Numbered from the stretch's first letter, positions 11,526-31,746 are shown. The stretch: 32,000 nt of DNA from Flavobacteriaceae bacterium (GCA_965224465.1 OZ245049.1:4440001-4472000), one strand, 5' to 3'. Made by a program: numbers and translations. The notes: a model not told the origin generated them from the sequence alone.

Positions 11526-13928
11526 TTACATGAATCCTCCACCGCCTTTTTTCTCATTATTAGCTCTTCGTTTTCTTTGTTTTGCTTTGTTTTTTCCTCC
11601 TCCAAATCGATAACTAAAACCTAGGTATGCGGTTTGACTTTCCCAGTTAAATTTTCCTGTTTGTGGGTATGGTTTTTTTGTTTCGAACTGGAATTTCATT
11701 CCTTTAAAAATATCGTTATAACGCAAGCTGATAGTTCCTTTTCCTTTCAGTACTTTATAAGTAGCTCCAGTGTTTACCATCCACATTGGTTCTGTTTCAA
11801 ATTGTATGCTTTGTCCAGCGCCTCGGTACATTGCAAATACATTAAAGCGTAATTTTTTTGTTGCCGTAAAACTTTGGCTCAATCTAGCGTTCCATTGCAC
11901 ACTACTTATGGATACCAATTGATTGTCTATAAGACCGTTTTCGTTGTTTTGATAGAAATCAAAACTTCCATTAATTCTCCACCATTTTGCAATTCTCAAA
12001 TTAGAAGAAATTTCAATTCCATAGGCATCGGTATCATCAGTATTTCTATACGATAATTCTACTTTTTCTGGATCCGTAGGATGCGCACTTAAACTTCTGC
12101 TTATATTGTTGCTTATCAATCTGTAAAAAGTACCAACAGTTACCGATCCTTTTTTTAATTGTTTGGTGTAGTTTAATTCAAATGAGTTTGTAAACTGAGG
12201 CTTTAAATTTGGATTTCCTCTAGAATCTATAGTAGAAGTACTCCATTGTAAATTTGGATTTACTTGCCCTAAACCTGGCCTGTCTACTCTTCTGCTATAA
12301 CTTGCTTGGAATTGATTTTTTGTGGAAGGGTTATAGGTTAAAAAGGCTGATGGGTACAAACTAAAAATTTCATCTTTGTAAGGTGTTTGTTGTACTCCGT
12401 TTTCAGAAAAGTCTGCTTTTACATTGTACTGTTCCAAGCGAGCTCCTAGTTGTAAACTTAATTTATTCCATTTCGTATTGTAATTTGTATAGAAAGAGTA
12501 GATATCTCTATTATAGGTAAATTTGTTAATTTCAAAATCTGTAGGATTTGATTTCCCCTGATTAGAAGTACGTCCGTTTTGTGTGTTTTGCGTTCTGTAT
12601 TCTACTCCTATTTCTAATTTTGAATGCTCTGTAAGAGGGTTTGTGTAATCTAAATTTACAATGGTATTCTCTCTTTTATTATTGGAGGATACTTGATAGT
12701 TTAAAATGTTGTTTAGAGGATTATTCCGTTCTGTATAACGCTGTGTTCCTTCTGGTGTAGAGGTAGCGTTGTTGATTTCAAAATCCAATGCATGTCCCTT
12801 TTTATTAAATGTAGTCGTGTAATTAAAATTATAGGTTTCACTCTTTGTATCATTTTCTTTGATCATCATCTCCATGGTATTTGGGTATTCTCCATTGGCG
12901 TATACATTATTTGTTGTAGAATTTAAAAATCCAGTACTCCAGTTTTGCGTGGTGTAAAAAGACATACTATTGTTATCATTAATGTCGTAGTCTACGCCTA
13001 ATTTAAGAAGATCAGATGTATTGTCACTCTCCATAGACAAACGTTGTCTACTGTTTAAATCTAAGCGTCTAATGTCTCCTTTATTGGATCGTTTTCCTCT
13101 ATTTGCTCCGTAATTCATGTAAAAATTAACATTGTCTACTTTGTAATTCATGTTGATAGATCCATTGTAACGGGTGTTGTCGCCATGTGTAAGTCCTAGT
13201 TCTACATTTCCATTAAAACCAATAGTCGCATTTTTGTGCAATACAATATTAATAATTCCAGACATTCCTTCTGGGTTGTATTTTGCAGAAGGATTGGTAA
13301 TTAATTCTATGGATTTGATAGCGCTAGAAGGGATTTGTTGTAATAACTGAGCTGCAGAAATATTGGTAGGTTTACCATCTACAAGTATACGTACATTATC
13401 GTTTCCTCTTAAGCTTATGTTTCCTGTTTGAGAATCTACGCTCACAGATTGTACGTTATTTAATAACTCTGCTGCAGTTGTTCCTGCCGATTGTAAGTCC
13501 TTGCCTACATTGATTACTTTTCGGTCTACTTTTTGTGTGATAGTAGAGGTTTCGGCAATTATTACAACTTCATCTAAGGCAGCTGCAGTCTCTTCCAATA
13601 CGATGATTCCAAGGTTGATTTTATGTGTATTTTTATCCATTATCAATACTTTTGTATACGTTTTGTATCCGATGTATTGAATTTCGATGGTGTTTTTACC
13701 TAAAGGTACTTTATGAATCATAAAATGTCCATTGTTTCCAGTAATACCTCCTGTTATTATCTTGTTTTCTGCATCTTTTATGATGATGCTTACATAAGGT
13801 AAGGATTCTTTTGAATGCGCATCAATAACTTTTCCAGAGACGGATCCTTGTTTAGGAATGGTACTGTTTGCTTGTGCTGGTGTAATTACCATAAAGCAAA
13901 AGGTGAAAATGATGAATAGTTTTTTCAT
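11526..13928 (-). CDS. TonB-dependent-receptor-like outer-membrane beta-barrel protein (CarboxypepD_reg + plug + barrel)
   Basis: 800 aa with signal peptide MKKLFIIFTFCFMVITPAQA. A CarboxypepD_reg-like block (SGKVIDAHSKESLPYVSIIIKD..NGHFMI) and a plug-like block (NVQSVSVDSQTGNISLRGNDNVRILVDGKP) are present. The long barrel has a basic/Gly-rich tail. Confidence 0.8.
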   Translation of the reverse strand: MKKLFIIFTFCFMVITPAQANSTIPKQGSVSGKVIDAHSKESLPYVSIIIKDAENKIITGGITGNNGHFMIHKVPLGKNTIEIQYIGYKTYTKVLIMDKNTHKINLGIIVLEETAAALDEVVIIAETSTITQKVDRKVINVGKDLQSAGTTAAELLNNVQSVSVDSQTGNISLRGNDNVRILVDGKPTNISAAQLLQQIPSSAIKSIELITNPSAKYNPEGMSGIINIVLHKNATIGFNGNVELGLTHGDNTRYNGSINMNYKVDNVNFYMNYGANRGKRSNKGDIRRLDLNSRQRLSMESDNTSDLLKLGVDYDINDNNSMSFYTTQNWSTGFLNSTTNNVYANGEYPNTMEMMIKENDTKSETYNFNYTTTFNKKGHALDFEINNATSTPEGTQRYTERNNPLNNILNYQVSSNNKRENTIVNLDYTNPLTEHSKLEIGVEYRTQNTQNGRTSNQGKSNPTDFEINKFTYNRDIYSFYTNYNTKWNKLSLQLGARLEQYNVKADFSENGVQQTPYKDEIFSLYPSAFLTYNPSTKNQFQASYSRRVDRPGLGQVNPNLQWSTSTIDSRGNPNLKPQFTNSFELNYTKQLKKGSVTVGTFYRLISNNISRSLSAHPTDPEKVELSYRNTDDTDAYGIEISSNLRIAKWWRINGSFDFYQNNENGLIDNQLVSISSVQWNARLSQSFTATKKLRFNVFAMYRGAGQSIQFETEPMWMVNTGATYKVLKGKGTISLRYNDIFKGMKFQFETKKPYPQTGKFNWESQTAYLGFSYRFGGGKNKAKQRKRRANNEKKGGGGFM

Positions 13929-14965: not shown

Positions 14966-16774
14966 ATGGCATTACAAAGCATCACTTCTATTTGGATAGG
15001 ATCAACAGAGATATCCTATTTTAAATCATTAGAATTACATCAAAATATAAAAGACCATCACCATCTAAAATTAGTTTGTCGCATGGATGTTTTAGAGGGT
15101 TTTGAAGAAGAACAAGCAAAGAGCAGCAAGGATTTTTTAGGGCAGGTTATCGGCTTAGAAATAAGCCCCTCTATAGGATTTGAAGGCGCCAAAGAACTCC
15201 TTTTTAAAGGGGTTGTAACGGGCGTGCAAAGCATAAAGGGCTTTGAGGCAGGTGATGGCGATGAAGTGATTATTAGCGCAAAGAGTCCTACTATTTTAGC
15301 TAGCGATGGCGCACATTTTACTTCGTACAACGATGTTTCTTTGTCGGGTATTATACACGATAATTTTCAGCTTTACGACACTTCAAAGCTATCTGTTTTG
15401 GTACGCTTACAAAACGATCCTACCATACATTATTCGGTACAGCACAACGAAAGTTCTTTTGCCTATGCAAGTAGGTTAGCGGCTATGCATGGAGAATGGA
15501 TGTACTACGATGGGATCCAATTGATCTTTGGAAAACCAGATCAAACAGAAGTTGCATTAACCTACGGATTTGATTTAAAAGAATACGAGTTAAAGCTAGA
15601 GCCACAATCTAGTAATTACACCTATTTTGCAAACGATTATTTAACAGACCAGGTATATGAGCAATCGGCAGCTAATGTAAATACAGGACTGCGAGGATAT
15701 GGCGATTTTGTATCAGGTAAATCCGCACATCTATTCCATAAGGAAACTAAAATTTGGCATAATTTACACAACAGTCCACAAACGCAACAACGCTTAGACA
15801 GGGCAACAGAAGTACAAATAAAAGCGATTGCTTTACAACAAGTAATTGTCCGTGTCACAAGCGACAATACAGGGGTAAAACTGGGAGGTATTGTAACGAT
15901 AGAAGGCAATAAATACAGGGTTGTAAAAATTACACATACCAATACAGAAACAGGCGAATACCTCAATAAATTTGAAGCCATTACCACAGATATAAATACA
16001 TATCCGTATACAGATATAAACGCATTTCCAAAAAGTGAAAGTCAAACGGCTGTAGTAAAATACAACGATGATCCCGATGGTTTAGGGCGTGTAAAAGTAC
16101 AGTTTGTTTGGCAAAAAATCACAGGAGAAATAAGTCCGTGGATACGAATGGTACAGCCACATGGGGGAGCAGATAAGGGCTTTTATTTTATTCCCGAAAT
16201 AAACGAAGAAGTATTGGTAGGTTTTGAAGGTGGGAATGCAGAGTATCCCTATGTCCTAGGAAGCCTCTACAATGGAAGTCAAGGTGCAGGTGCTTTTCAA
16301 TCAAAAAATAATGATATCAAAGCGATTAAAACTCGCGGAGGTCACCTAATAGAATTCAAAGACACCAATGGGGAAGAAACGATAACTATTTTAGATAAGA
16401 GTGGTAATAAAATAGTATTCGATGTTGCAAGTTCTAGCATCAATATATCAGCCCCGTCAAACATAACCCTTAGTGCAGATACGATACAGATTAAAGCAAA
16501 AAATGAAATTAAAATGTTTTCAGCCGAAAGCAGTATCGCCATAGAAGCAAAACAGGATATAGGGATGCATAGTAAGGATTCAAAATTACAATTAAGTGCT
16601 AAAGAAGATGTAGATATTCGTAGTAAAAATGCCAATTTAAAAATTAAAGCAAAGAATACGACACAAATTGTAGGTAATAAAACGGTTGACGTATTGGCGG
16701 GTAATGAATTAAAAATGCACGGTAAAAGTAGCAGTAAATTAACAGGAGGAAAAGTATTTATAAATAAAGGCTAG
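14966..16774 (+). CDS. vgrG: Type VI secretion spike protein VgrG (TssI), short Bacteroidota-type
   Basis: 602 aa. A gp27-like N-terminus is followed by a gp5 OB-fold signature, GRVKVQFVWQ...SPWIRMVQPHGGADKGFYFIPEINEEVLVGFEGGNAEYPYVLGSLYNG. The C-terminus is repetitive and beta-helix-like. Confidence 0.9.
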   Translation: MALQSITSIWIGSTEISYFKSLELHQNIKDHHHLKLVCRMDVLEGFEEEQAKSSKDFLGQVIGLEISPSIGFEGAKELLFKGVVTGVQSIKGFEAGDGDEVIISAKSPTILASDGAHFTSYNDVSLSGIIHDNFQLYDTSKLSVLVRLQNDPTIHYSVQHNESSFAYASRLAAMHGEWMYYDGIQLIFGKPDQTEVALTYGFDLKEYELKLEPQSSNYTYFANDYLTDQVYEQSAANVNTGLRGYGDFVSGKSAHLFHKETKIWHNLHNSPQTQQRLDRATEVQIKAIALQQVIVRVTSDNTGVKLGGIVTIEGNKYRVVKITHTNTETGEYLNKFEAITTDINTYPYTDINAFPKSESQTAVVKYNDDPDGLGRVKVQFVWQKITGEISPWIRMVQPHGGADKGFYFIPEINEEVLVGFEGGNAEYPYVLGSLYNGSQGAGAFQSKNNDIKAIKTRGGHLIEFKDTNGEETITILDKSGNKIVFDVASSSINISAPSNITLSADTIQIKAKNEIKMFSAESSIAIEAKQDIGMHSKDSKLQLSAKEDVDIRSKNANLKIKAKNTTQIVGNKTVDVLAGNELKMHGKSSSKLTGGKVFINKG

Positions 16775-16781: not shown

Positions 16782-17633
16782 ATGAGAACTTTAGAACTCG
16801 AAACATATATTATAGATAAAAAAGTGTACAAATATGTATCTAAGTCTATAGTAGCAACAGAAAAAATGATGATGAAAAACTCATCAGAAGCTATTGTGAA
16901 AAAAAAGTACATTAAGAAGAATTTTCATAATACAGGTGCTATTTTTAGAATTGACACCCTGTCTGAAACCCAAGGAAAAGAGAGTGCCACGGGTAAATTA
17001 AGTGCCGATTTAAATAGCTTAATGCATCATATAAGTGTAGGAACTACCGCAACAGGAGAACTGCAAACAATTTTCAACATGGATCAAGTGATCGATACAT
17101 GGGATGCTCTTAAAAAGCGATGGAAAAAAGAGGCCCCTAGGAAAAACAGAAAACAGGTACAAAAAACGATAGATGCAGTAGAAGAAAATTTAGAAAACGG
17201 TAGTTTTGTTAAAGACATCGCTAGCCAAGGCATGCTGCATTTTTTACTGAACGGTTTGTATACAAATTACGGCAAGGATAATTGTATCGTGATCGCAAGA
17301 GATTTGAATAAATTTTTAGTAACACAACCATTGCCTTTAAATATTACCTATAAAATTGTAGCGTATGATAGGCTAAGCAAAGCCATGATAATTGAAGGCG
17401 AAGGGGAAGTTGCAGAAGAACGCCTTAACAAAAAAGAATTAACCCATTTTATACGATCGTTAAAAGATCAAATAAATTTAAAAGTGGATCTTCAAGTTGT
17501 TTATAAAGAGCGTTTTGAATTTGATGGAAGCCATTGGTTAACAAGAGCAAGACAGAAAGTAAAAGTAACAATCCCGGGGTTTTACATGGCAGAAACGGAT
17601 CAAAAAATAGAAGAATTGAACGATGAGCAATAA
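16782..17633 (+). CDS. Hypothetical protein between vgrG and the PAAR-like effector (candidate adaptor/chaperone)
   Basis: 283-aa ORF that starts 8 nt after the vgrG stop and overlaps the effector start by 11 nt (ATGAGCAATAA). I recognise no family. Any function is inferred from position only. Confidence 0.5.
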   Translation: MRTLELETYIIDKKVYKYVSKSIVATEKMMMKNSSEAIVKKKYIKKNFHNTGAIFRIDTLSETQGKESATGKLSADLNSLMHHISVGTTATGELQTIFNMDQVIDTWDALKKRWKKEAPRKNRKQVQKTIDAVEENLENGSFVKDIASQGMLHFLLNGLYTNYGKDNCIVIARDLNKFLVTQPLPLNITYKIVAYDRLSKAMIIEGEGEVAEERLNKKELTHFIRSLKDQINLKVDLQVVYKERFEFDGSHWLTRARQKVKVTIPGFYMAETDQKIEELNDEQ

Positions 17634-18696
17634 AAAATACGTACCGCAAGGCGTGTATTTAGCTTGCGATAAAGGAACTGTACCAACCGAATTTAAAATA
17701 ACGAATAATAATAATGTTTTTTTGTTTGATGAGCCCGTTGCCAATACGGGAGATATGATCCCCAATGTTAATATACAACCCTTTGGAGCCTGTAGCGTAA
17801 AATATGGAAACCCTTGCGTACCTGTGCCAACTGTTTGGCAAGGTTTTGAAGATGGTATATTTATTGGTAACTTTAACCCATTATTAGAAGACTCCGTGAT
17901 GCAATGTGGTGTAGGCGGAAAAATAGAAATACATTACTCGCTAGAAGATGCCCAAGCAGCATGTGGCGATGATGGAATGAGTTTCTGGGAAATAGTAGCT
18001 GCCACGGTATTGGTAGTAGCAGCAGTCGCATTAATTGTGATTACAGGAGGAGCTGTTATAGCGGCAGTAACTGCTGTAAGTGCTGCGACAGGTGCATTGG
18101 CAACTACAATAGCTGTAGGTGTTGTGGCATTAGAAGGGTTTGGTTTGTATTGTGAAGTAAAAGCATTATACGACTATACCGAAGACGGAGACGAAGAAGC
18201 ATTGTTTAAAGGTGTAGCCTTAGGTTTTTTGTTTTTAGGAGCAGGGAAAGTTGTTGAGAAAGGGTTTAGGGCACTTAAAAACAGTAAAGCCATTGTCGAA
18301 GTAACAGAACAGGTTACTAAGAAAATAAGTAAAAGGCTACAGTTTTTAGGAAGAACACCTGGGAAATCCTCTAAAACAGGCAGAGAAGTTTTTGAAAGAA
18401 TGTTAAACGGAAAACCTCCTACTGCAAGAGTTAAAAGAATAGGAAAAAAAGAAATAAAAGAATTTTGGGATTATGATAATCAAAAATGGAGAAATATAAA
18501 AGAAGCAGATATGGGGCATATTGAGGATGCCGTTTCGTATTGGAATAACACAGGAAGATACCTAGGTGCAAAATCTAAAGAGGTACGTAAATGGATGTTG
18601 GACTCAGATAATTATGTTTATGAGTATTTTAGAACGAATAGATCAAAAGGCGCAATATTAGGAAAAACAACAACTTATTTACCTCCAATTAATTAA
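17623..18696 (+). CDS. T6SS polymorphic effector: DUF4280/PAAR-like domain + multi-TM segment + C-terminal GH-E-like HNH/EndoVII nuclease toxin (CT type A)
   Basis: The N-terminal ~105 aa fit the DUF4280 pattern (YVPQGVYLACDKG, PFGAC, NPCVPVPTVW, MQCGVGGKIEI). An Ala/Val/Gly-rich hydrophobic run follows (FWEIVAATVLVVAAVALIVITGGAVIAAVTAVSAATGALATTIAVGVVAL), then the junction helix ALFKGVALGFLFLGAGKVVEKG. The C-terminal ~145 aa carry DMGHIED...NYVYEYFRTNRSKG, as in the GH-E family. Confidence 0.8.
   Translation: MSNKKYVPQGVYLACDKGTVPTEFKITNNNNVFLFDEPVANTGDMIPNVNIQPFGACSVKYGNPCVPVPTVWQGFEDGIFIGNFNPLLEDSVMQCGVGGKIEIHYSLEDAQAACGDDGMSFWEIVAATVLVVAAVALIVITGGAVIAAVTAVSAATGALATTIAVGVVALEGFGLYCEVKALYDYTEDGDEEALFKGVALGFLFLGAGKVVEKGFRALKNSKAIVEVTEQVTKKISKRLQFLGRTPGKSSKTGREVFERMLNGKPPTARVKRIGKKEIKEFWDYDNQKWRNIKEADMGHIEDAVSYWNNTGRYLGAKSKEVRKWMLDSDNYVYEYFRTNRSKGAILGKTTTYLPPIN
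18154..18264 (+). repeat. R0: recombination-homology segment inside the expressed effector gene
   Basis: 18190..18264 (GACGAAGAAGCATTGTTTAAAGGTGTAGCCTTAGGTTTTTTGTTTTTAGGAGCAGGGAAAGTTGTTGAGAAAGG) recurs essentially unchanged in R1 to R8. Weaker in-frame homology extends back to about 18154. Confidence 0.85.
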
Positions 18697-18713
18697 AATA
18701 AAAAATTTTTAAT

Positions 18714-19160
18714 ATGAAAGAATTCAGTAATGAAATAGAAAATAAAATCGATAATTTTTTAAGTGAATCTTCTGAATATTACGAGAAAGGAAATATTATA
18801 AAATCGGGTAATTACCTTGTAAAGGCATATAAGATAATACCTCAGCCTAGAGAGAAATATAATGAAAGCTATAACTATTGTTCATATGTTTTAGATTATA
18901 TTTTAGATGAAGAATATGAGGTTAATAATGCTTTAAAGTGGTTACAAGAACTAGAACTGATAGCAAATTTTCAAAAAACATGGGAAGGAAGCTATGAGTT
19001 TTATGCAGCAAAAACATATTTTGTAATAGGACAATTTGAGAAGGCAATAGAATATTTTGATAAGTGTATTGAAATAGGAAAAGGGATGAGATATTTTGAA
19101 GATGAAGATCCTAAATACAAAGATTTTTATCTAAATCCTGAAAAATACACAAATGAATGA
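18714..19160 (+). CDS. Variable helical-repeat protein, candidate immunity/accessory (allele 1 of 3)
   Basis: 148 aa. Homologous but strongly diverged from 27401..27853 and 30855..31295, except for the shared C-terminus RYFE.E..KYKDFYLNPEKYTNE. Its stop overlaps the next start (ATGAATGA). Confidence 0.6.
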   Translation: MKEFSNEIENKIDNFLSESSEYYEKGNIIKSGNYLVKAYKIIPQPREKYNESYNYCSYVLDYILDEEYEVNNALKWLQELELIANFQKTWEGSYEFYAAKTYFVIGQFEKAIEYFDKCIEIGKGMRYFEDEDPKYKDFYLNPEKYTNE

Positions 19161-19611
19161 ATTAAATAACGGTCTTTATTTAACAGTAGAAGAACTTAAC
19201 GAAGAAGGCAATGACTTATTCGAAAAAGAGCAATTTTTAGATGCCTTAAAGAAATATGAACAAGCATTAAATTTACTTCCTATTCCAAAAACAAACTGGG
19301 AAGCAAGCACATGGCTTTATACGAGCATAGCAGATGTGTATTTTTCAATTAATGATTTAGAAATAGCCAAAAACAATTATTACAATGCTCTTAATTGCCC
19401 AGAAGGTATGGGCAACGCATATATTCATTTTAGTTTAGGTCAAGTTTTATTTCTACTAGGAGAGATTGATAAGTCTAGACAATCATTATTGCGTAGCTAT
19501 ATGTTAGAAGGGGAGGATATATTTAAAGATGAAGACCCAAAATTTAGAAAAAGTATTGAAAATTATTTAAAACCTCCGCCAAAAAAATCACGTTTTTTAT
19601 TAGATGATTAA
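19153..19611 (+). CDS. TPR-like protein, candidate immunity for CT type A; carries the KKSRFLLDD tail
   Basis: 152 aa with TPR-like helices (EEGNDLFEKEQFLDALKKYEQALNLLP; ADVYFSINDLEIAKNNYYNAL). Nearly identical copies lie at 27846..28304 and 31288..31746. Confidence 0.6.
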   Translation: MNELNNGLYLTVEELNEEGNDLFEKEQFLDALKKYEQALNLLPIPKTNWEASTWLYTSIADVYFSINDLEIAKNNYYNALNCPEGMGNAYIHFSLGQVLFLLGEIDKSRQSLLRSYMLEGEDIFKDEDPKFRKSIENYLKPPPKKSRFLLDD

Positions 19612-19750
19612 TTAAGGTAGTATAGTATTTTTGAAATACAGAAGTAAATACCCTTTATGATTATAGCCAAGATAGTGACGAAGAAGCATTGTTTAAAGGT
19701 GTAGCCTTAGGTTTTTTGTTTTTAGGAGCAGGGAAAGTTGTTGAGAAAGG
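19582..19750 (+). repeat. R1 inter-cassette direct repeat (~170 bp)
   Basis: Spans the last 10 codons of the upstream ORF (KKSRFLLDD*), the conserved spacer TTAATTAAGGTAGTATAGTATTTTTGAAATACAGAAGTAAATACCCTTTATGATTATAGCCAAGATAGT, and the 74-nt core shared with R0. Confidence 0.9.
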
Positions 19751-20243
19751 ACTTAAATCATTAAAATTTACAGATCAAGTTCTTGATGTTGCTAATGCGA
19801 CAAACAAACAAAAAGGTAATTTTGGAGAGATAAAAGCAGCTGCTAACCTGTCAAAAAATAAGAAGTTAAAAAGTGCAGGGTATGACCTGACAAGAATTGG
19901 TGATAAAGCCCCAACAGGATTTAATAATACCATTAAAAAAGGAATTGACGGTTTGTACGAAAACGCAACTCCACCACCTCAATTTGTTATCGATGAGGCA
20001 AAATATGGGACATCTAAGTTAAGTAAAACAGTTGATGGGAATAAACAAATGTCTGATGGATGGATAGAAGCTAATGATTATAAAAGGTTAACTGATCAAG
20101 TAGATGAAGATAAGGCTAGAGAGATCATTAGAGCGATGGAAAACGGAGAAGTAGAAAAAATATTATCTAACATAGATGAATCAGGAAATGTAGTTACAAA
20201 AAGTTTAGATGAATTAGGTAAAATAATAGGTGATTGGCCGTAA
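19689..20243 (+). CDS. Orphan toxin cassette O1: CT type B, PD-(D/E)xK restriction-endonuclease-fold nuclease-like (possibly PoNe-like)
   Basis: The frame is open from 19635 and the track start is a TTG. It begins with the junction helix FKGVALGFLFLGAGKVVEKG. Candidate catalytic pattern is GNFGE ... GIDGLYE ... VIDEAKYG (D...ExK). No N-terminal trafficking domain. Confidence 0.6.
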   Translation: MFKGVALGFLFLGAGKVVEKGLKSLKFTDQVLDVANATNKQKGNFGEIKAAANLSKNKKLKSAGYDLTRIGDKAPTGFNNTIKKGIDGLYENATPPPQFVIDEAKYGTSKLSKTVDGNKQMSDGWIEANDYKRLTDQVDEDKAREIIRAMENGEVEKILSNIDESGNVVTKSLDELGKIIGDWP

Positions 20244-20257
20244 AATTAAATATAATA

Positions 20258-21046
20258 ATGAATATTAGAGATAGATTAAACACTCAAGAAAGGTATCAAG
20301 AAATAATTGACAAAAAAACTCAATATATTAATGAAGATTTAATTAGAATTCAAGAAAGAAAAGAAGATGAAAAAAATAACATTCAACAATATCCAAAACC
20401 AAATATTAAGATTATTAAATCTATCTCAAACTCTTTAGTAGGGAAATATATAAATTTATTACAAGCAGAGTATTCTGTTGGTAGTGATTTTATTAAAATT
20501 AAAGAGATCTTTAGTCAGTTATTAGGTTCAATGGAAATTTCTTGGAATTTAAAATCAGTTGAAGATTTTAAGCATGGCTTTGATGAAGATCCGTATTACA
20601 CAACAGATAATTACCAGCAAATTTTGACCTTAGTAAGTTTGGGGGTTTTATTAGAGGTTGGTAATGCCGATTTTGATAAAATAATAAAAATACGTGATAA
20701 GGTAAAAAATTCAGATCAACTATTGGATTTTTTAATAAACTACCGTGTTAAAAGAGAATTTAAAAAGACTCTATTGAAATATAATAAATATACAAATATT
20801 CAGCAAATTTTAGATGTTCAAGATAAAACAGAAGTTATAAAATCTTTAAAAAAATATCTTTCAAAGCAATGGTTTAAAGATTTCGGAAAAATGGCAAATG
20901 CAGAAACTCATAAAAGCAAGTGGAATATTCATACAGGTTATTGGAGTTGGGAAGCAGGTGCAATAGCAAAAATCCTAAATTTAGATGATAGTAGTTTAAA
21001 AGATCAACAATACTACCCTTATGATATGGTACATTTTAAAGATTAA
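20258..21046 (+). CDS. Candidate immunity protein for CT type B (DUF1911/PoNi-like, tentative)
   Basis: I place the start at MNIRDRLNTQERYQE by homology with the start of 28961..29707; the track start at 20234 is a TTG. The C-terminal HKSKWNIHTGYWSWEAGAIAKILNLDDSSLKDQQYYPYDMV resembles the DUF1911 C-terminus as I recall it. Confidence 0.55.
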   Translation: MNIRDRLNTQERYQEIIDKKTQYINEDLIRIQERKEDEKNNIQQYPKPNIKIIKSISNSLVGKYINLLQAEYSVGSDFIKIKEIFSQLLGSMEISWNLKSVEDFKHGFDEDPYYTTDNYQQILTLVSLGVLLEVGNADFDKIIKIRDKVKNSDQLLDFLINYRVKREFKKTLLKYNKYTNIQQILDVQDKTEVIKSLKKYLSKQWFKDFGKMANAETHKSKWNIHTGYWSWEAGAIAKILNLDDSSLKDQQYYPYDMVHFKD

Positions 21047-22851: not shown

Positions 22852-23136
22852 ATGGGAAGAAAAAAGCATGATAATGAGTTCAAGGTAATGATAGTAGAAC
22901 TATTAAAGTCCGGAATGAAATCAAAACAGATTAGTACAGATTACGAGTTGGATGTAAGTATGATATCTCGCTGGAAGCGAGAATACGAGATTAAATCGGG
23001 TGACTTTTCTAAAAAGAAAGAGTTAACCAATGATGAAGTGGAGCTAAAGGCGTTAAAAAAGGAACTTCGTAACGTAACTATGGAGCGTGATATATTAAAA
23101 AAGGCGGTAGGCATCTTTTCCAAGAGCGACAGATAA
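22852..23136 (+). CDS. IS3-family transposase OrfA (HTH/leucine-zipper part)
   Basis: 94 aa. MGRKKHDNEFKVMIVELLKSG...ISRWKREY and the coiled-coil ELKALKKELRNVTMERDILKKA are typical of IS3 OrfA. Confidence 0.85.
   Translation: MGRKKHDNEFKVMIVELLKSGMKSKQISTDYELDVSMISRWKREYEIKSGDFSKKKELTNDEVELKALKKELRNVTMERDILKKAVGIFSKSDR
23097..23103 (+). promoter_or_regulatory. Programmed -1 ribosomal frameshift site A AAA AAG (orfA to orfB)
   Basis: The heptamer is in the X XXY YYZ phase of orfA (codons TTA AAA AAG). The -1 frame is open from 23103 into orfB (GGRHLFQERQIRYKFIFNNGVSFPVEKMCKSMRVS). Confidence 0.7.
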
Positions 23137-23183
23137 GGTATAAATTCATTTTTAATAATGGAGTATCCTTCCCTGTTGAAAAG

Positions 23184-24017
23184 ATGTGCAAATCCATGCG
23201 CGTTAGTGAAAATGCATATTATCACTGGGTAAACAATAACGGTTCCAGCGTACATAATACAGCTAAAGTAGACTTGATGAATAGGATTACCTATCATTTT
23301 ATCGAAAGTAAAGAGATCTATGGGAGTCATAGAATTCAAAAAGCACTGGAGCGAGAAGGAGTGTATTATTCCCGTTCTTACGTGGCGCTGTTGATGAAAG
23401 AGATGGGTCTGCGAAGTGTTCTGAAGAAGGCTTTTGTGGTAACTACAGACTCTAAACACGATTATCCTATTGCTGAAAATATATTAAACAGAGAGTTTAC
23501 CAGTTTGAAAACAGGAGATAAATGGGTGTCAGATATCACCTATATACGCGTAAATGATGATTGGAATTACTTAACGACGATAATTGATTTAGCTGACAGA
23601 AAAGTGGTAGGTTGGTCATTAAGTGAAGACATGACCACCCAAAACACCATTGTAAAAGCGTGGATTGCGGCTAGAAGAACAAGAGCTATTAATCCAGGGT
23701 TTATCTTTCATTCAGACAGAGGAGTGCAATACGCATCTAATAAAATGACTGCTATTTTAAATTTTAATCAGAAAATAACACAAAGCATGAGTAGAAAAGG
23801 TAATTGTTGGGATAATGCTGTTGCTGAGAGCTTTTTTAAATCCATAAAGTATGAGTGGCTCTATCGTTTCAAGTACATGTCATATCTGCAATTACACGAG
23901 TCGATAAATGAATATATCTCTTGGTACAATATCAAAAGATTACATTCAAGTTTAGGGTATTTATCACCGCTTGAAATGGAAATAAAACTAAAAAAGAAAA
24001 TTAAGAAAGTGGCTTAG
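23184..24017 (+). CDS. IS3-family transposase OrfB (DDE/rve integrase core), probably made as an OrfAB fusion
   Basis: WVSDITYI (first D), FHSDRGVQYAS (second D) and NCWDNAVAESFFKSIKYEW (E) form the DDE triad. The frame is open upstream to 23103. Confidence 0.85.
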   Translation: MCKSMRVSENAYYHWVNNNGSSVHNTAKVDLMNRITYHFIESKEIYGSHRIQKALEREGVYYSRSYVALLMKEMGLRSVLKKAFVVTTDSKHDYPIAENILNREFTSLKTGDKWVSDITYIRVNDDWNYLTTIIDLADRKVVGWSLSEDMTTQNTIVKAWIAARRTRAINPGFIFHSDRGVQYASNKMTAILNFNQKITQSMSRKGNCWDNAVAESFFKSIKYEWLYRFKYMSYLQLHESINEYISWYNIKRLHSSLGYLSPLEMEIKLKKKIKKVA

Positions 24018-25153: not shown

Positions 25154-25290
25154 TTAAGGTAGTATAGTATTTTTGAAATACAGAAGTAAATACCCTTTAT
25201 GATTATAGCCAAGATAGTGACGAAGAAGCATTGTTTAAAGGTGTAGCCTTAGGTTTTTTGTTTTTAGGAGCAGGGAAAGTTGTTGAGAAA
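25124..25290 (+). repeat. R4 inter-cassette direct repeat
   Basis: Same tail, spacer and core as R1. Confidence 0.9.
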
Positions 25291-25740: not shown

Positions 25741-25753
25741 TAAAAATTAAATT

Positions 25754-26452: not shown

Positions 26453-26454
26453 AT

Positions 26455-26829
26455 ATGATTGTTTTTTTATATGACTCAGAATTGGAGTATGAATTATTAG
26501 ATGAAGAATTACACCTAAATGAAGCCTTAACCGAGTTTTATGAATTATCTGAAATAGAAGGTTCATTTTTTGGTGTTAAAACCCTAGGTGAAGTAATACA
26601 ATTTTCTTGGGAAGATGTAGATAAATGGCTTATAGACTTACCTAATCCACCATCTTTTTTGAATTTCCAACGATATGCTAACTATGATGAATGTGTCGAG
26701 ACTATTAAAATAGTTTTTAATGGAGTTTCTCCAAAAGAAGTTAAGAATTTAACAAAAGTTAATATTAAGTCAGAAACTCTCGATGGTGTCCTTAAGAAAA
26801 AAAAATCACGTTTTTTATTAGATGATTAA
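26455..26829 (+). CDS. Hypothetical acidic cassette-terminal protein; KKSRFLLDD tail
   Basis: 124 aa, starting 2 nt after the upstream stop. No family recognised. Confidence 0.5.
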   Translation: MIVFLYDSELEYELLDEELHLNEALTEFYELSEIEGSFFGVKTLGEVIQFSWEDVDKWLIDLPNPPSFLNFQRYANYDECVETIKIVFNGVSPKEVKNLTKVNIKSETLDGVLKKKKSRFLLDD

Positions 26830-26969
26830 TTAAGGTAGTATAGTATTTTTGAAATACAGAAGTAAATACCCTTTATGATTATAGCCAAGATAGTGACGAA
26901 GAAGCATTGTTTAAAGGTGTAGCCTTAGGTTTTTTGTTTTTAGGAGCAGGGAAAGTTGTTGAGAAAGGG
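26800..26969 (+). repeat. R5 inter-cassette direct repeat
   Basis: Same tail, spacer and core as R1. Confidence 0.9.
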
Positions 26970-27401
26970 TTTAGGGCACTTAAAAACAGTAAAGCCATTG
27001 TCGAAGTAACAGAACAGGTTACTAAGAAAATAAGTAAAAGGCTACAGTTTTTAGGAAGAACACCTGGGAAATCCTCTAAAACAGGCAGAGAAGTTTTTGA
27101 AAGAATGTTAAACGGAAAACCTCCTACTGCAAGAGTTAAAAGAATAGGAAAAAAAGAAATAAAAGAATTTTGGGATTATGATAATCAAAAATGGAGAAAT
27201 ATAAAAGAAGCAGATATGGGGCATATTGAGGATGCCGTTTCGTATTGGAATAACACAGGAAGATACCTAGGTGCAAAATCTAAAGAGGTACGTAAATGGA
27301 TGTTGGATTCAGATAATTATGTTTATGAGTATTTTAGAACGAATAGATCAAAAGGCGCAATATTAGGAAAAACAACAACTTATTTACCTCCAATTAATTA
27401 A
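26907..27401 (+). CDS. Orphan toxin cassette O5: CT type A (GH-E-like), silent near-exact copy of the expressed toxin tip
   Basis: The protein is identical to residues ~194-357 of 17623..18696. By direct comparison of 18190..18696 with 26895..27401 I see one nucleotide difference, the synonymous GAC/GAT at 18601 versus 27306. Confidence 0.7.
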   Translation: MFKGVALGFLFLGAGKVVEKGFRALKNSKAIVEVTEQVTKKISKRLQFLGRTPGKSSKTGREVFERMLNGKPPTARVKRIGKKEIKEFWDYDNQKWRNIKEADMGHIEDAVSYWNNTGRYLGAKSKEVRKWMLDSDNYVYEYFRTNRSKGAILGKTTTYLPPIN

Positions 27402-27853
27402 TGAAAATAAAAATGGCAATTTTAGAAAAACACACACAAGATAAAATAGATAAATTATCTAATGAATCATACAAGCGTTATGAAGTTGGGGATAAGGAAA
27501 CTTCATATAGACTAATGGAAGAAGCGTGGGGAATGTATCCAAATCCAAAAGAGAATTGGAATGAGAGTTATAATACTGCTAAATACGCTTTAGATGATCT
27601 TTTAAAAAATGGTGAAATTGAAAAAGCAATGATTTGGTATACAAGAATGGTTAAAATTCATGAGAACCTTGGACTTTGGATAGGTTCATTTGAATATTAT
27701 TCAGGAAAAATATTCTTTGAAAAGAAGGATTTTAAAAAGTCCTTAGAATACTTTAATAAAATGTTTGAAATTGCTGGTCATAGATATTTTGAAGATGAAA
27801 ATTCAAAATACAAAGATTTTTATCTAAATCCTGAAAAATACACAAATGAATGA
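27401..27853 (+). CDS. Variable helical-repeat protein, candidate immunity/accessory (allele 2 of 3)
   Basis: 150 aa. The start overlaps the toxin stop (TAATG), and an alternative start lies at 27413 (MAILEK, compare 30855). Shares only the C-terminal block with the other two alleles. Confidence 0.55.
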   Translation: MKIKMAILEKHTQDKIDKLSNESYKRYEVGDKETSYRLMEEAWGMYPNPKENWNESYNTAKYALDDLLKNGEIEKAMIWYTRMVKIHENLGLWIGSFEYYSGKIFFEKKDFKKSLEYFNKMFEIAGHRYFEDENSKYKDFYLNPEKYTNE

Positions 27854-28304
27854 ATTAAATAACGGTCTTTATTTAACAGTAGAAGAACTTAGCGAAGAAG
27901 GCAATGACTTATTCGAAAAAGAGCAATTTTTAGATGCCTTAAAGAAATATGAACAAGCATTAAATTTACTTCCTATTCCAAAAATAAACTGGGAAGCAAG
28001 CACATGGCTTTATACGAGCATAGCAGATGTGTATTTTTCAATTAATGATTTAGAAATAGCCAAAAACAATTATTACAATGCTCTTAATTGCCCAGAAGGT
28101 ATGGGCAACGCATATATTCATTTTAGTTTAGGTCAAGTTTTATTTCTACTAGGAGAGATTGATAAGTCTAGACAATCATTATTGCGTAGCTATATGTTAG
28201 AAGGGGAGGATATATTTAAAGATGAAGACCCAAAATTCAGAAAAAGTATTGAAAATTATTTAAAACCTCCGTCAAAAAAATCTCGTTTTTTATTAGATGA
28301 TTAA
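27846..28304 (+). CDS. TPR-like protein, candidate immunity for CT type A; KKSRFLLDD tail
   Basis: 152 aa, with 3 residue differences from 19153..19611. Confidence 0.6.
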   Translation: MNELNNGLYLTVEELSEEGNDLFEKEQFLDALKKYEQALNLLPIPKINWEASTWLYTSIADVYFSINDLEIAKNNYYNALNCPEGMGNAYIHFSLGQVLFLLGEIDKSRQSLLRSYMLEGEDIFKDEDPKFRKSIENYLKPPSKKSRFLLDD

Positions 28305-28364: not shown

Positions 28365-28375
28365 CGGCAACTAAT

Positions 28376-28418
28376 AAATACATTCCCAAGTGACGGTTTA
28401 TAAATAGAATTATTTTTT
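28376..28418. repeat. Small dispersed repeat, family X, replacing the 5' part of the cassette homology core
   Basis: AAATACATTCCCAAGTGACGGTTTATAAATAGAATTATTTT matches 11470..11510. The canonical core resumes at about 28413 (TTTTTTGTTTTTAGGAGCAGGGAAAGTTGTTGAGAAAGG) and runs to 28451. Confidence 0.65.
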
Positions 28419-28947
28419 GTTTTTAGGAGCAGGGAAAGTTGTTGAGAAAGGACTTAAATCATTAAAATTTACAGATGAAGTTCTAGATGTTGCTAATGCG
28501 ACAAACAAACAAAAAGGTAATTTTGGAGAGATAAAAGCAGCTGCTAACCTGTCAAAAAATAAGAAGTTAAAAAGTGCAGGGTATGACCTGACAAGAATTG
28601 GTGATAAAGCCCCGACAGGATTTAATAATACCATTAAAAAAGGAATTGACGGTTTGTACGAAAACGCAACTCCACCACCCAAGTTTGTAATAGATGAAGC
28701 TAAGTTTAATACCGCTCAACTTGGTAAAACCAAAGATGGCAAGCAGATGAGTGATGGATGGTTGTTAGGAGAAAAAACAGGAAATAATAGGCTAATAGAT
28801 CAAGTAGGTGATGTAAAAGCTGATGAAATAATGGAAGCACTAGAAAATGGAGAAGTGGAAAAAATTATAAGCCGTGTTGACGTAAATGGGAATGTAGTTA
28901 GTAAACAATTAAATAGTGCAGGTAATATTATAGGTAATTGGCCATAA
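28417..28947 (+). CDS. Orphan toxin cassette O6: CT type B' (PD-(D/E)xK-like variant) with a degraded 5' junction
   Basis: Starts at TTG inside the junction helix (FLGAGKVVEKG). It is near-identical to O1 through ..VIDEAK, after which the C-terminal half diverges. Confidence 0.55.
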   Translation: MFLGAGKVVEKGLKSLKFTDEVLDVANATNKQKGNFGEIKAAANLSKNKKLKSAGYDLTRIGDKAPTGFNNTIKKGIDGLYENATPPPKFVIDEAKFNTAQLGKTKDGKQMSDGWLLGEKTGNNRLIDQVGDVKADEIMEALENGEVEKIISRVDVNGNVVSKQLNSAGNIIGNWP

Positions 28948-28960
28948 CTAATATATAAAT

Positions 28961-29707
28961 ATGAAATTAAGAGATGTATTAAATACAGAAGAAGGATATC
29001 AAGAAATAATAGATAAAAAAGATCGATTTATTAATTCTAGGTTTGATAAAATAAAAAAACTAAAAAAAGATGAAATTGATGGGATTCAACAATATCCTAA
29101 GCCTAATTATGACATTATTATAAGTTCCAAAAAAAGCATTCTAACTTTTTATCGTGAAATACTTGAGACTAAATATTCAGTAGGAGAAGAATTGTCTGTA
29201 ATTAAACAGTATTATTTAGATGTTATTAACTTTATAAATGATTCTAAAACTCATTCAGGTTATGCAAATATTTTAAGATTAATTTCTATGGGGATTATGT
29301 TTGAAATAAATGAAGATGAGTTTAAGATACTAATTGAATTAGTAGAGAGGTATTTAAAGAAAACAAAAGATGAAGATTTTTTAATTGATTTTTTAATTAA
29401 TTTCTATAAACCGGATTGGATACAATCCAATACTTTTTTAATAAATATACCTTATAAAAACATTAATGGTATTATAGAATTATCAAAAAAGAGTAAGATA
29501 GAAGCATCAGTGAAATTAAATACATATATATCAAAATGTTGGTACAGAGGTATTATTGAAGTCGAAACTCATAAAAGCAAGTGGAATATTCATACAGGTT
29601 ATTGGAGTTGGGAAGCAGGTGCAATAGCAAAAATCCTAAATTTAGATGATAGTAGTTTAAAAGATCAACAATACTACCCTTATGATATGGTACATTTTAA
29701 AGATTAA
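28961..29707 (+). CDS. Candidate immunity protein for CT type B' (DUF1911/PoNi-like, tentative), variant
   Basis: 248 aa. The last ~47 aa are identical to those of 20258..21046, and the remainder is strongly diverged. Confidence 0.55.
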   Translation: MKLRDVLNTEEGYQEIIDKKDRFINSRFDKIKKLKKDEIDGIQQYPKPNYDIIISSKKSILTFYREILETKYSVGEELSVIKQYYLDVINFINDSKTHSGYANILRLISMGIMFEINEDEFKILIELVERYLKKTKDEDFLIDFLINFYKPDWIQSNTFLINIPYKNINGIIELSKKSKIEASVKLNTYISKCWYRGIIEVETHKSKWNIHTGYWSWEAGAIAKILNLDDSSLKDQQYYPYDMVHFKD

Positions 29708-29712
29708 TAATA

Positions 29713-30267
29713 ATGTGTTACATTTTAGAACTATCTTATTTATTAGTGAATAAGGATCAGAAAGATCAAATAAACATTCAAAAAGAAGTAAAACTATCTG
29801 TCAATAAACCTAAAGAATACTTTTCCTTATTTGCAAGTGATTTAGCAGAAAGAGGTATTGAGAAGCCAATTGTTGAATTGCCTTGGTTTGCAATGATTAA
29901 TGGATTGTATCGTGAGGGGTTTCTACAAGAATTAGATTGGAAATCTTATCCTGAAGATTTTGTAGAAGCGACTTTAGCGTTAATTAAATGTCATTCAAAT
30001 TCTAAGCAAATAAAAAATCAACTCCTAGATTTAGAATTTTTAAATAATGATTTAGAAGTAGAAGAAGTTATTATAAAAATTAATAAGGTACTACAAGAAT
30101 TCAATATTTTACTAATTATTATTGATATAGATAGTGATAGTTATCTTTTAAATAGGATCGAATTTGATAAAAAAGAAAGAGTTTTAGAGTTAGTTTCCTT
30201 TTTAGGTTACGGTAAAATTAAGATATATCGTAACAAAAAGAAGAGCCGTTTTTTATTAGACGAATAA
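29713..30267 (+). CDS. Hypothetical cassette-terminal protein; KKSRFLLDE tail
   Basis: 184 aa, with 2 residue differences from 21052..21606. Confidence 0.5.
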   Translation: MCYILELSYLLVNKDQKDQINIQKEVKLSVNKPKEYFSLFASDLAERGIEKPIVELPWFAMINGLYREGFLQELDWKSYPEDFVEATLALIKCHSNSKQIKNQLLDLEFLNNDLEVEEVIIKINKVLQEFNILLIIIDIDSDSYLLNRIEFDKKERVLELVSFLGYGKIKIYRNKKKSRFLLDE

Positions 30268-30405
30268 CGGATTACAAGCAGTTCTTTGAAATACAGAAGT
30301 AAATACCCTTTATGATTATAGCCAAGATAGTGACGAAGAAGCATTGTTTAAAGGTGTAGCCTTAGGTTTTTTGTTTTTAGGAGCTGGGAAAGTTGTTGAG
30401 AAAGG
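30235..30405 (+). repeat. R7 inter-cassette direct repeat (R2-type spacer)
   Basis: KKKSRFLLDE* tail, spacer CGGATTACAAGCAGTTCTTTGAAATACAG.., and the core with one substitution (GGAGCTGGG). Confidence 0.85.
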
Positions 30406-30838
30406 GTTTAGGGCACTTAAAAACAGTAAAGCCATTGTCGAAGTAACAGAACAGGTTACTAAGAAAATAAGTAAAAGGCTACAGTTTTTAGGAAGAACAC
30501 CTGGGAAATCCTCTAAAACAGGCAGAGAAGTTTTTGAAAGAATGTTAAACGGAAAACCTCCTACTGCAAGACTTGAGGACGATTTTGGAAATGTAACTAA
30601 AGAGTTTTGGGATTCTGATAATAAGGTATGGAGGGATGTTATGGAAGCAGATATGGGGCATATTGAGGATGCCGTTTCGTATTGGAATAACACAGGAAGA
30701 TACCTAGGGGCAAAATCTACAGAGGTACGTAAGTGGATGTTGGATTCAGATAATTATGTTTATGAGTATTTTAGAACGAATAGATCAAAAGGCGCAATAT
30801 TAGGAAAAACAACAACTTATTTACCTCCAATTAATTAA
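30344..30838 (+). CDS. Orphan toxin cassette O7: CT type A' (GH-E-like variant)
   Basis: 164 aa. Identical to type A except for a central patch (RLEDDFGNVTKEFWDSDNKVWRDVMEADMGH versus RVKRIGKKEIKEFWDYDNQKWRNIKEADMGH) and one later K/T change. Confidence 0.65.
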   Translation: MFKGVALGFLFLGAGKVVEKGFRALKNSKAIVEVTEQVTKKISKRLQFLGRTPGKSSKTGREVFERMLNGKPPTARLEDDFGNVTKEFWDSDNKVWRDVMEADMGHIEDAVSYWNNTGRYLGAKSTEVRKWMLDSDNYVYEYFRTNRSKGAILGKTTTYLPPIN

Positions 30839-30854: not shown

Positions 30855-31295
30855 ATGGCAATATTAGAAGCAATTATTTATGATGAGATTATAGTAATAG
30901 GAAAAAAATCTGTAGAATCAATAAAAAAAGGAGATTTAAATAACTTCATTAAGTTTTCGGAATTAGCTTGGAATAAGTTTCCTGAGCCAAAAGAAAACTG
31001 GAATCAAACGTATAATTTTTGTAAAATGGTTTTTAAGCACTTGATAAATAGCAGTTTACTGTGTCAAGCTGAGGAGTGGCTAAACAGAATGGTTCTAAAT
31101 AACAACAAATTACACCTTTTTGATGTAGATATAGATTTCAATATTGGGAAATTGCATTTTGAAATGAAAGATTATACTAGAGCATTGGAAAAATGGAATT
31201 ATGTAGTAAAAGAAGCTGGTTATAGATATTTTGAAAGAGAAAATTCAAAATACAAAGATTTTTATCTAAATCCTGAAAAATACACAAATGAATGA
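30855..31295 (+). CDS. Variable helical-repeat protein, candidate immunity/accessory (allele 3 of 3)
   Basis: 146 aa. Shares YRYFERENSKYKDFYLNPEKYTNE with the other alleles, and the rest has diverged. Confidence 0.55.
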   Translation: MAILEAIIYDEIIVIGKKSVESIKKGDLNNFIKFSELAWNKFPEPKENWNQTYNFCKMVFKHLINSSLLCQAEEWLNRMVLNNNKLHLFDVDIDFNIGKLHFEMKDYTRALEKWNYVVKEAGYRYFERENSKYKDFYLNPEKYTNE

Positions 31296-31746
31296 ATTAA
31301 ATAACGGTCTTTATTTAACAGTAGAAGAACTTAGCGAAGAAGGCAATGACTTATTCGAAAAAGAGCAATTTTTAGATGCCTTAAAGAAATATGAACAAGC
31401 ATTAAATTTACTTCCTATTCCAAAAACAAACTGGGAAGCAAGCACATGGCTTTATACGAGCATAGCAGATGTGTATTTTTCAATTAATGATTTAGAAATA
31501 GCCAAAAACAATTATTACAATGCTCTTAATTGCCCAGAAGGTATGGGCAACGCATATATTCATTTTAGTTTAGGTCAAGTTTTATTTCTACTAGGAGAGA
31601 TTGATAAGTCCAGACAATCATTATTGCGTAGCTATATGTTAGAAGGGGAGGATATATTTAAAGATGAAGACCCAAAATTTAGAAAAAGTATTGAAAATTA
31701 TTTAAAACCTCCGCCAAAAAAATCACGTTTTTTATTAGATGATTAA
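31288..31746 (+). CDS. TPR-like protein, candidate immunity for CT type A; KKSRFLLDD tail
   Basis: 152 aa, with 1 residue difference from 19153..19611. Confidence 0.6.
   Translation: MNELNNGLYLTVEELSEEGNDLFEKEQFLDALKKYEQALNLLPIPKTNWEASTWLYTSIADVYFSINDLEIAKNNYYNALNCPEGMGNAYIHFSLGQVLFLLGEIDKSRQSLLRSYMLEGEDIFKDEDPKFRKSIENYLKPPPKKSRFLLDD

Follow-up and report, generated by a model that had tools for sequence, protein, structure and literature searches.

Three diverged TPR immunity candidates between near-identical flanks in a GH-E toxin array of a Flavobacteriaceae bacterium

Introduction

Acquired interbacterial defence clusters keep several immunity genes, and Riley is said to have proposed a model of diversifying selection for the diversification of colicin and pyocin DNases and their immunities. 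The colicin/pyocin DNase-immunity system is introduced in PMC4548480. Orphan toxin-immunity arrays and displacement of the toxin C-terminus were described for Rhs and contact-dependent inhibition (CDI) loci (Poole 2011, PMC3150448; Steele 2017, PMC5727410, citing Jackson 2009 and Koskiniemi 2014), and poly-immunity loci were defined as immunity genes uninterrupted by toxin genes or cassettes (Zhang 2012, PMC3482391). Here we describe a toxin/immunity array in a stretch of 32,000 nucleotides from a Flavobacteriaceae bacterium (GCA_965224465.1, OZ245049.1:4440001-4472000), which we call the window. In this array the first gene downstream of a GH-E nuclease toxin is present in three strongly diverged alleles, while the sequences on both sides of it are nearly identical.

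The Tox-GH-E entry lists Imm-SuFu and Imm-ank (Zhang 2012, PMC3482391). For the Salmonella PAAR-RhsA-GH-E protein, a single tetratricopeptide repeat (TPR) immunity was predicted directly downstream (PMC11669294). Dual immunity to one toxin was reported in 2026 and called rare by its authors; the immunities Tdi5a and Tdi5b bind non-overlapping surfaces of the toxin Tde5, namely the active site and an exosite, and form a ternary complex with it (PMC13392607).

In our locus the toxin is followed by a variable gene (V) and a conserved gene (C). We propose, with a probability of roughly 0.6, that V is an allele-specific immunity gene and that gene conversion and C-terminal displacement have made its flanks uniform.

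Results

Divergence island in the A-type cassettes

At this locus a DUF4280 (PAAR-like) effector, linked to VgrG and ending in a GH-E nuclease domain, stands in front of eight or more orphan toxin/immunity cassettes. Together they form a co-directional array in the right half of the window, with the cassette order A(E), B, C, IS3 element, C', D, A(O5), B', A'(O7), B''. We identified eight orphan cassettes (O1-O8), each with a 5'-truncated toxin fragment and then the immunity gene or genes, in the same orientation (Table 1). The three A-type cassettes, that of the expressed effector (E), O5 and O7, contain a toxin segment (T), V and C.

We observed a mosaic structure in the DNA alignment of these three cassettes. 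Identity was 96-99% in the toxin and the second gene and 46-55% from the toxin stop (18696) to approximately 19090. The left breakpoint lies one base past the toxin stop codon. On the right side identity returns at AGATATTTTGAA, at about 19090, and is perfect from about 19113; the earlier note had marked the same two borders, and the alignment confirmed them. The identity of the island versus the flanks was 55% versus 99.1% for E/O5, 46% versus 95.8% for E/O7 and 52% versus 95.9% for O5/O7 (Fisher p = 1e-79 to 1e-101 for the three pairs), a contrast far beyond chance. Synonymous sites are saturated at 46-55% DNA identity between the V alleles. There was no minus-strand open reading frame (ORF) of at least 60 amino acids, no Rfam match and no notable repeat in the island, and no Rfam family was detected in the whole window.

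The same pattern was seen in the proteins. The toxin C-termini of E and O5 were 100% identical, and that of O7 was 90% identical to both. Full-length V proteins were 44, 32 and 44% identical in pairs; without the last 25 residues the values dropped to 35, 21 and 34%, whereas the last 25 residues were 84-92% identical. The 152-residue C proteins were 98-99% identical among the three cassettes. Thus the description given in the earlier note, that of alleles about one-third identical apart from their ends, placed behind an identical toxin in two cases and before a nearly constant TPR gene, was accurate. Its three ORFs (18714..19160, 27401..27853 and 30855..31295; 148, 150 and 146 amino acids) are all present, but the second one more probably starts at the ATG at 27413, which gives 146 amino acids and the beginning MAILEK, as in the homologues.

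Table 1. Positions of the effector operon, the A-type cassettes and related features in the window.
Feature	Position	Strand	Evidence or remark
VgrG spike protein, 602 aa, head of effector operon	14966..16774	+	Pfam Phage_base_V 2.7e-23, Phage_GPD, DUF2345
283-aa protein between VgrG and effector	16782..17633	+	candidate adaptor/chaperone
Expressed effector, 357 aa: DUF4280 (PAAR-like) N-terminus, hydrophobic linker, GH-E nuclease C-terminus (CT-A)	17623..18696	+	
Hypervariable toxin loop region (VKRIGKKEIKEF... up to catalytic ADMGH)	18424..18520	+	
Divergence island	18697..19090	+	spacer and first ~125 codons of v1; 46-55% identity vs 96-99% in flanks
v1, V-type 3-TPR protein of expressed cassette, 148 aa	18714..19160	+	TPR matches (Pfam)
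c1, C-type 3-TPR paralogue, 152 aa	19153..19611	+	TPR matches; last 9 codons (KKSRFLLDD) part of junction repeat
Cassette junction repeat, ~190 nt, 8 copies	19585..19760	+	alignment of all junctions and main gene
Orphan O1, B type: toxin fragment, PoNi immunity 270 aa, DUF6630 protein 184 aa	19689..21606	+	
Orphan O5 toxin fragment	26907..27401	+	protein 100% identical to CT-A; no ATG start, no N-terminal domain
v2, V allele of O5, 146 aa from ATG 27413	27413..27853	+	ORF call starts 27401 (150 aa)
c2, C paralogue of O5	27846..28304	+	98% identical to c1
Orphan O6, B' type: toxin fragment, divergent PoNi allele 248 aa, near-identical DUF6630 protein	28417..30267	+	
Orphan O7 toxin fragment, CT-A'	30344..30838	+	90% identical; loop LEDDFGNVTKEF
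v3, V allele of O7, 146 aa	30855..31295	+	
c3, C paralogue of O7	31288..31746	+	99% identical to c1

V and C as TPR paralogues

V and C are paralogous three-TPR proteins of approximately 150 amino acids, a relationship that the earlier note had missed. They were homologous over the full length (hhalign probability 99.1%, E = 4.6e-19), and the motifs P-x-PK-x-W and F-E-D-E-D-P-K-Y were common to both. AlphaFold2 models of v1 and c1 (pLDDT 95 and 94, respectively) contained three TPRs, that is six long helices and a cap. Foldseek with both models identified only generic or designed TPR domains (CTPR3, CHIP, Hop), and the fold of c1 was like the TPR domains of CHIP and Hop. Sequence and profile searches of the PDB gave generic TPR proteins only, without a specific relative, and the matches in Pfam and NCBIfam were to generic TPR models, not to a curated immunity (Imm) family or a dedicated family.

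All three V ORFs were intact and had kept every family-invariant residue. The tail of V is conserved across the whole V family. The orphan V copies could be regarded as decaying, unexpressed relics with a neutral pattern, as the orphan toxin fragments have neither starts nor N-terminal domains and an IS3 element lies within the array. We consider this very unlikely. Neutral decay was rejected on the basis of the intact V ORFs with all invariant residues, the confident model of v1 (pLDDT 95) and the island/flank contrast; it cannot give 50% divergence beside DNA which is 99-100% identical.

Recombination within the array

The cassettes are joined by a repeat of approximately 190 nucleotides, with further copies at the ends of the cassette-terminal genes at 21606, 22750, 25153, 26829, 28304, 30267 and 31746. 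The repeat consists of the last 27 nucleotides of the terminal gene, a spacer and an in-frame remnant ending in ...DEEALFKGVALGFLFLGAGKVVEKG, which matches the main effector gene at approximately 18150-18265. It is a putative homology arm for swapping of C-termini. The repeat begins 27 nucleotides inside each gene, therefore the same tail, KKSRFLLD[DE], ends four unrelated cassette-terminal proteins (the C TPR protein, the DUF6630 protein, SUKH and a 124-residue protein); this acidic tail may be functional or may be just a scar of recombination. In O6 (28330-28416) the 5' homology arm (…DSDEEALFKGVALG) is swapped for about 50 nucleotides of unrelated sequence, hence part of the segment for recombining into the main gene was lost.

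Variable sites outside the island were incongruent. In the toxin E agreed with O5 (34 sites), whereas in C and the junction spacer E agreed with O7 (16 sites); variable sites inside the island favoured no pair. We found two sister strains (L170 and L171) in one metagenome, sample ERZ25073217, with flanks 98-99.5% identical to the window. In one of them the same effector has the C' C-terminus (toxin 99%, SUKH 100% identical to O3) and the next cassette is B, 99-100% identical to O1. In the other one the effector has the B C-terminus and a mosaic PoNi. The same N-terminus thus bears NucA/NucB or PoNe-type C-termini, which is direct evidence of C-terminal displacement within one pool of cassettes. 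The sister strains also show that the toxin and the first downstream gene normally move together.

The B cassettes have the same layout as the A cassettes, with a variable first and a constant second gene. Between O1 and O6 we observed an island at 19990-20920 which is 30-80% identical and takes in the toxin's 3' half as well as the larger part of the first gene, with flanks of approximately 100% identity. The second gene was approximately 100% identical (Pfam PoNi_N, PoNi_C and DUF6630 for the two genes). The two PoNi alleles (270 and 248 amino acids) were 46% identical, as compared through the L170 copy, which is identical to the PoNi of O1. The toxin fragment of the B cassettes had no Pfam match. 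An island between conserved flanks was seen in the two C-type cassettes as well, where it again takes in the 3' part of the toxin, and this recurrence in the B and C cassettes had escaped the earlier note. The variable first gene in both cassette types is a member of a known immunity family, PoNi or SUKH, which speaks against the idea, raised before, that the variable gene of the A cassettes has a role other than immunity.

A ninth cassette, of B type and with a start identical to O1, begins at 31830-32000, before the end of the window; therefore the [A-B] block is present three times and the array extends past the window. The two C-type (NucA/NucB and SUKH) cassettes are parted by an IS3-family element (22852-24017; orfA 94 and orfB 277 amino acids) located directly after the junction repeat of O2.

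The V/C pair beside GH-E toxins in other genomes

We scanned representative genomes and metagenomes with the toxin profile and obtained 162 loci, which together with the window contained 174 GH-E toxin units. Both V and C were present in 112 of these (approximately 64%), in Bacteroidota, Proteobacteria and Firmicutes. The arrangement was T-V-C in 78 units, T-C-V in 26, T-V-V(-V)-C in 7 and T-C-C-V in 1. The pair is conserved and the gene order is lineage-specific: the gene right after the toxin was V in Bacteroidota and Proteobacteria, and the order T-C-V was found mostly in Firmicutes (L013, L014, L016, L017, L020, L023, L024, L026, L043, L045, L049 and L056). Approximately 46 units, about a quarter, had a single TPR gene of intermediate type; in the Rhs loci of Enterobacterales and Pseudomonas this lone gene scored equally on the V and C profiles. 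Since V and C are tied to the toxin domain and are independent of the secretion system, a role as adaptors is disfavoured and immunity-type functions are favoured.

Two natural V-C fusions were detected, one in a metagenome-assembled genome (MAG) of Fusibacter (L047, 4889-5863, 324 amino acids) and one in a MAG of Tessaracoccus (L073, 1787-2647, 286 amino acids). V genes occurred in tandem in T-V-V-C and T-V-V-V-C units, and there was never more than one strong C per unit. A solitary v1-like gene (62%) was located in a long Maribacter array of small immunity-type genes (L081), without toxin or C, and other v1-like genes lay in V-V pairs or toxin-free contexts.

These arrangements bear on the possibility that V and C are obligate subunits of one inhibitor, with a constant C on the conserved surface of the toxin and an exchangeable V on its loop. 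Several V alleles could then share one C, which would refine the explanation given above and would not exclude it. The occurrence of both genes beside the toxin in about 64% of units, in at least three phyla and in either order, the fusions, the tandem V genes with a single strong C and the motifs common to both paralogues are all consistent with it, and there is a precedent in the ternary complex of two immunities on a beta-beta-alpha-metal DNase (PMC13392607). On the other hand, V is found without C in Maribacter and in the V-V contigs, about a quarter of the units have one TPR gene of intermediate type, and poly-immunity proteins, in which unrelated immunity domains are fused, have been described too (PMC3482391). 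We regard an obligate pair as possible but rather improbable.

Averaged over 54 T-V-C triples, identity was highest in the toxin (59%), lower in C (42%) and lowest in V (28%). Among foreign genomes with toxins at least 80% identical, V and C diverged about equally (V/C identity 0.62/0.71, 0.74/0.79 and 0.92/0.91), and in some of these pairs C was more diverged than V (0.64/0.51 and 0.63/0.38). The contrast in the window (0.32-0.44 for V versus 0.98-0.99 for C) is an outlier among the triples, so the pattern is as unusual as the earlier note had held.

Each V of the window is, judged by identity, closer to V of other genera than to its sister alleles. The nearest V to v2 were those of L001 (64%, a Flavobacteriaceae MAG) and L004 (57%), where the toxins carry a different short loop. 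For v3 the nearest were L083 (58%) and, in Chryseobacterium, L003 (50%); the nearest relatives (L083, L101 and L003, 50-58%) all stand beside toxins with an xEDxFGNxVKEF loop. For v1 they were the solitary Maribacter gene (62%) and the V of L082 (55%), which lies beside a degenerate toxin of the same loop class. This toxin remnant (L082, 560-817) has a loop of the CT-A class and no catalytic ADMGH (…WRDIKDAVTWW…); it is inactivated, and the V and C next to it are intact.

Divergence in place after duplication of a cassette, driven by strong positive selection or by a targeted mutator such as a diversity-generating retroelement, would agree with the sharp borders of the change and its restriction to a single gene core. 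We find it scarcely credible, as the nearest relatives of every allele are found in other genera and not within its array, the differences comprise indels and all base classes near saturation, and flanks of 99% identity leave no time for 50% divergence. No reverse transcriptase and no template-like repeat were present in the window; on these grounds, and because of the foreign relatives, a retroelement or hypermutation was rejected. The cassettes are a mosaic and not a product of plain sequence drift, which the earlier note had named as an alternative.

Toxin and covariation of its loop with V

The effector matched DUF4280 (Pfam, E = 5.3e-19) and, below threshold, GH-E (PF14410, E = 0.0025, 18.8 bits against a cut-off of 25). 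Several toxin homologues at 60-70% identity bear PF14410 or the name GH-E nuclease, and homologues of CT-A are annotated as GH-E nucleases on HINT, Rhs, DUF4280 and other carriers in many phyla. The positions ADM[GA]H, DAV, NY and NRS were invariant or nearly so in 30 sequences, and the conserved G-H and downstream acidic/N residues of the HNH/EndoVII fold were present. Sequence and profile searches of the PDB with the toxin matched no chain.

No other part of the toxin family varies as much as the loop that directly precedes the catalytic ADMGH, residues 268-279 of the 357-residue effector. This loop is also the sole diverged patch between CT-A and CT-A' (43-80% DNA identity, the rest being identical). 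In Bacteroidota-type loci, 12-residue loops of the type xEDxFGNxVKEF (FG type) paired with v3-like V, and short basic loops (IGRGGKKEF and similar) paired with v2-like V. The long basic loop VRKVGRKEIKEF of the CT-A class paired with v1-like V in L082. Loop class and V lineage were associated (Fisher p = 0.009, non-redundant loci). In a Mantel test on 24 non-window loci the loop correlated with V (rho = 0.23, p = 0.012) and not with C (rho = -0.10, p = 0.82). V therefore appears to follow the toxin loop and C does not; the direction is clear and the effect is modest. According to this pairing rule, E (CT-A with v1) and O7 (CT-A' with v3) would be matched, whereas O5 (CT-A with v2) would be mismatched.

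The earlier note had suggested that the 152-residue protein may be the cognate immunity. In this case C would neutralise CT-A and CT-A' through the invariant core, and the V genes would be added orphan immunities against foreign variants. Where toxin cores are the same, the C proteins hardly differ; C is more conserved than V on average (42% versus 28%) and occurs once per cassette, and its fold is the more canonical peptide-binding TPR. However, C is reshuffled relative to the toxin across genomes (toxin 84% and C 41% for L001; 83% and 38% for L046/L060) and does not track the loop. Moreover, V is placed directly after the toxin in Bacteroidota and Proteobacteria, its equivalent in the B cassettes is the known immunity PoNi, and the toxin and the first gene travel together in the sister strains. 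We consider it unlikely that C is the true cognate immunity. The related view that V is employed otherwise is disfavoured by the relationship of V and C as paralogues, both of them conserved partners of the toxin, and by the lack of correlation between C and the loop.

Other features of the window

The effector has the features of a type VI secretion system (T6SS) effector, as both the PAAR-like DUF4280 domain and an adjacent vgrG are present (Pfam). The window holds no genes of the T6SS core apparatus; the upstream genes encode glycosidases, TonB receptors and Fur. The same genome has two further VgrG paralogues. Synteny of the VgrG gene was the same in L170 and L171. The 283-residue protein had no family match in Pfam or NCBIfam. 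It was 100% identical in L171; in L170 its gene is interrupted by an IS1595-family transposase (11817-13767) and the two halves were 98% identical over 193 and 100% over 82 amino acids.

Scans of the array for terminators and promoters gave numbers at or below the shuffle expectation and no internal terminators, with a promoter model that is unfit for Bacteroidota. Cassette D (25231-26829) encodes a 169-residue toxin fragment, a HEAT-repeat protein (232 amino acids) and a 124-residue protein; the first and the last had no family match. Outside the array and unrelated to it, we noted a 1008-residue protein (2132-5158) with an unusual fusion of APH phosphotransferase, M23 peptidase and class-III aminotransferase domains.

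Discussion

We propose that orphan C-terminus/immunity cassettes of this array swap into the expressed gene by means of the junction repeat. V would act as an allele-specific immunity that recognises the hypervariable loop upstream of the catalytic ADMGH, and C would be a slower-evolving partner which does not set allele specificity. C may be an independent second immunity or a common subunit; the V-C fusions and V-V-C arrays favour the latter, and the solitary V genes appear to argue that V can act alone. The three V cores would be old allelic lineages, brought together by horizontal acquisition and recombination and not by divergence in place. The toxin body, the conserved tail of V, C and the junction would have been homogenised by gene conversion within the array, duplication and C-terminal displacement. 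This homogenisation would halt where similarity ends, on the left at the end of the toxin and on the right at the tail of V, so that the V cores and the loop of the O7 toxin persist as islands too divergent to convert, presumably kept distinct by selection. Binding and specificity of V are inferences from these patterns, and so are the direction in which conversion ran and the expression of the orphans.

The toxin segments of E and O5 would be recent copies of each other, and the identical toxin beside v2 is probably a by-product of conversion. If so, the paradox of an identical toxin with divergent immunities vanishes, because it is the toxin side that was homogenised. Since v1 fits the loop class of CT-A and the v2 lineage stands elsewhere beside another loop, v2 would be likeliest kept against a non-self variant. 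The array could tolerate the mismatch of the O5 toxin and v2, since none of the V and C genes has been lost and the orphan fragment does not function as a toxin. Self-protection would not be at risk, as every V allele and C remain part of one co-directional array. The proposal of the earlier note that the variable gene may be a diversifying repertoire, with specificities directed in part at non-self toxin variants, is thus largely supported by the apparently old V lineages, the covariation with the loop, and the tandem and solitary V genes.

Several observations weigh against this interpretation. Loop and V correlate modestly (rho = 0.23), across loci that lack phylogenetic independence. The link of v1 with the long basic loop consists of the window and one foreign locus (L082); L168 has just 46 residues of V and L169 is without the loop, so neither of them informs it. 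The link of v2 with the short loop comes from two close relatives (L001 and L004) and weaker ones, and loci of Sphingobacteriia have FG loops, yet their V is only 26-32% identical to v3. Immunity itself was read from gene position and covariation, and C might be the main inhibitor of the catalytic core, a part of the toxin that does not differ among the three cassettes.

We put forward more tentatively that GH-E toxins in general are neutralised by a constant/variable TPR immunity, in which C would dock on the nuclease core, V would read the loop and V alleles would be collected around one C. If this were true, a dual-immunity architecture made of paralogues would be widespread and would cross phyla, and protection would be widened by V alleles in orphan cassettes, V-V-C arrays and solitary V genes. 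Should V and C act together, they would be a general example of modularised immunity specificity. A clade of GH-E toxins in many phyla is accompanied by a paralogous TPR pair of unequal evolutionary behaviour. The locus itself is a natural experiment, with one toxin scaffold, three divergent immunity alleles and a single short loop that differs in one copy, and it points to specificity determinants on both the toxin and the immunity side.

The behaviour of the array is known polymorphic-toxin biology and is only moderately surprising. The V/C TPR pair apparently is new, as no description of it was found in the GH-E literature searched or in curated families. In Salmonella PAAR-RhsA-GH-E the same toxin domain is followed directly by a TPR protein, as in our locus, but neither a V and C pair nor its asymmetry is mentioned there or in the survey of polymorphic toxins (PMC11669294; PMC3482391). 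Divergence in the immunity gene and in the immunity-contacting part of the toxin, between conserved flanks, is also a feature of colicin/pyocin DNases; in our case, however, the toxin side of E and O5 is not diverged at all. As in poly-immunity loci and acquired defence clusters, the array retains a number of paralogous immunity genes, for which non-self toxins are a plausible target, and the Maribacter array L081 looks like such a cluster. In the window toxin fragments precede each immunity set, which differs from the definition of poly-immunity loci (PMC3482391).

The tandem immunity paralogues esaG and tipC (Garrett 2022, PMC9484751) resemble V in having variable cores between recombination blocks of high identity, mosaics and changes in copy number. 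In the present array the end of the toxin fragment serves as the 5' block, the tail of V plus a whole paralogous gene serves as the 3' block, and the copies lie apart, with other cassettes between them, and not directly in tandem.

The array shares with Rhs/CDI loci a full-length toxin followed by 5'-truncated C-terminus/immunity modules, each opening with homology to the main gene, and strains of one species that express different C-termini of one pool. It differs in its carrier, a small DUF4280-TM protein behind VgrG, in cassettes of two or three genes, in the presence of one toxin type three times with different immunity alleles, and in a junction repeat that includes the 3' end of each cassette's last gene.

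Like the Tde5/Tdi5a/Tdi5b system (PMC13392607), our locus encodes a putative T6SS DNase of the His-Me finger superfamily with two candidate immunity genes downstream, whose adjacency is conserved. Tdi5a and Tdi5b are structurally unrelated and were found in closely related Pseudomonas only, whereas V and C are TPR paralogues and are widespread. If C is a second, independent immunity, it would parallel this system.

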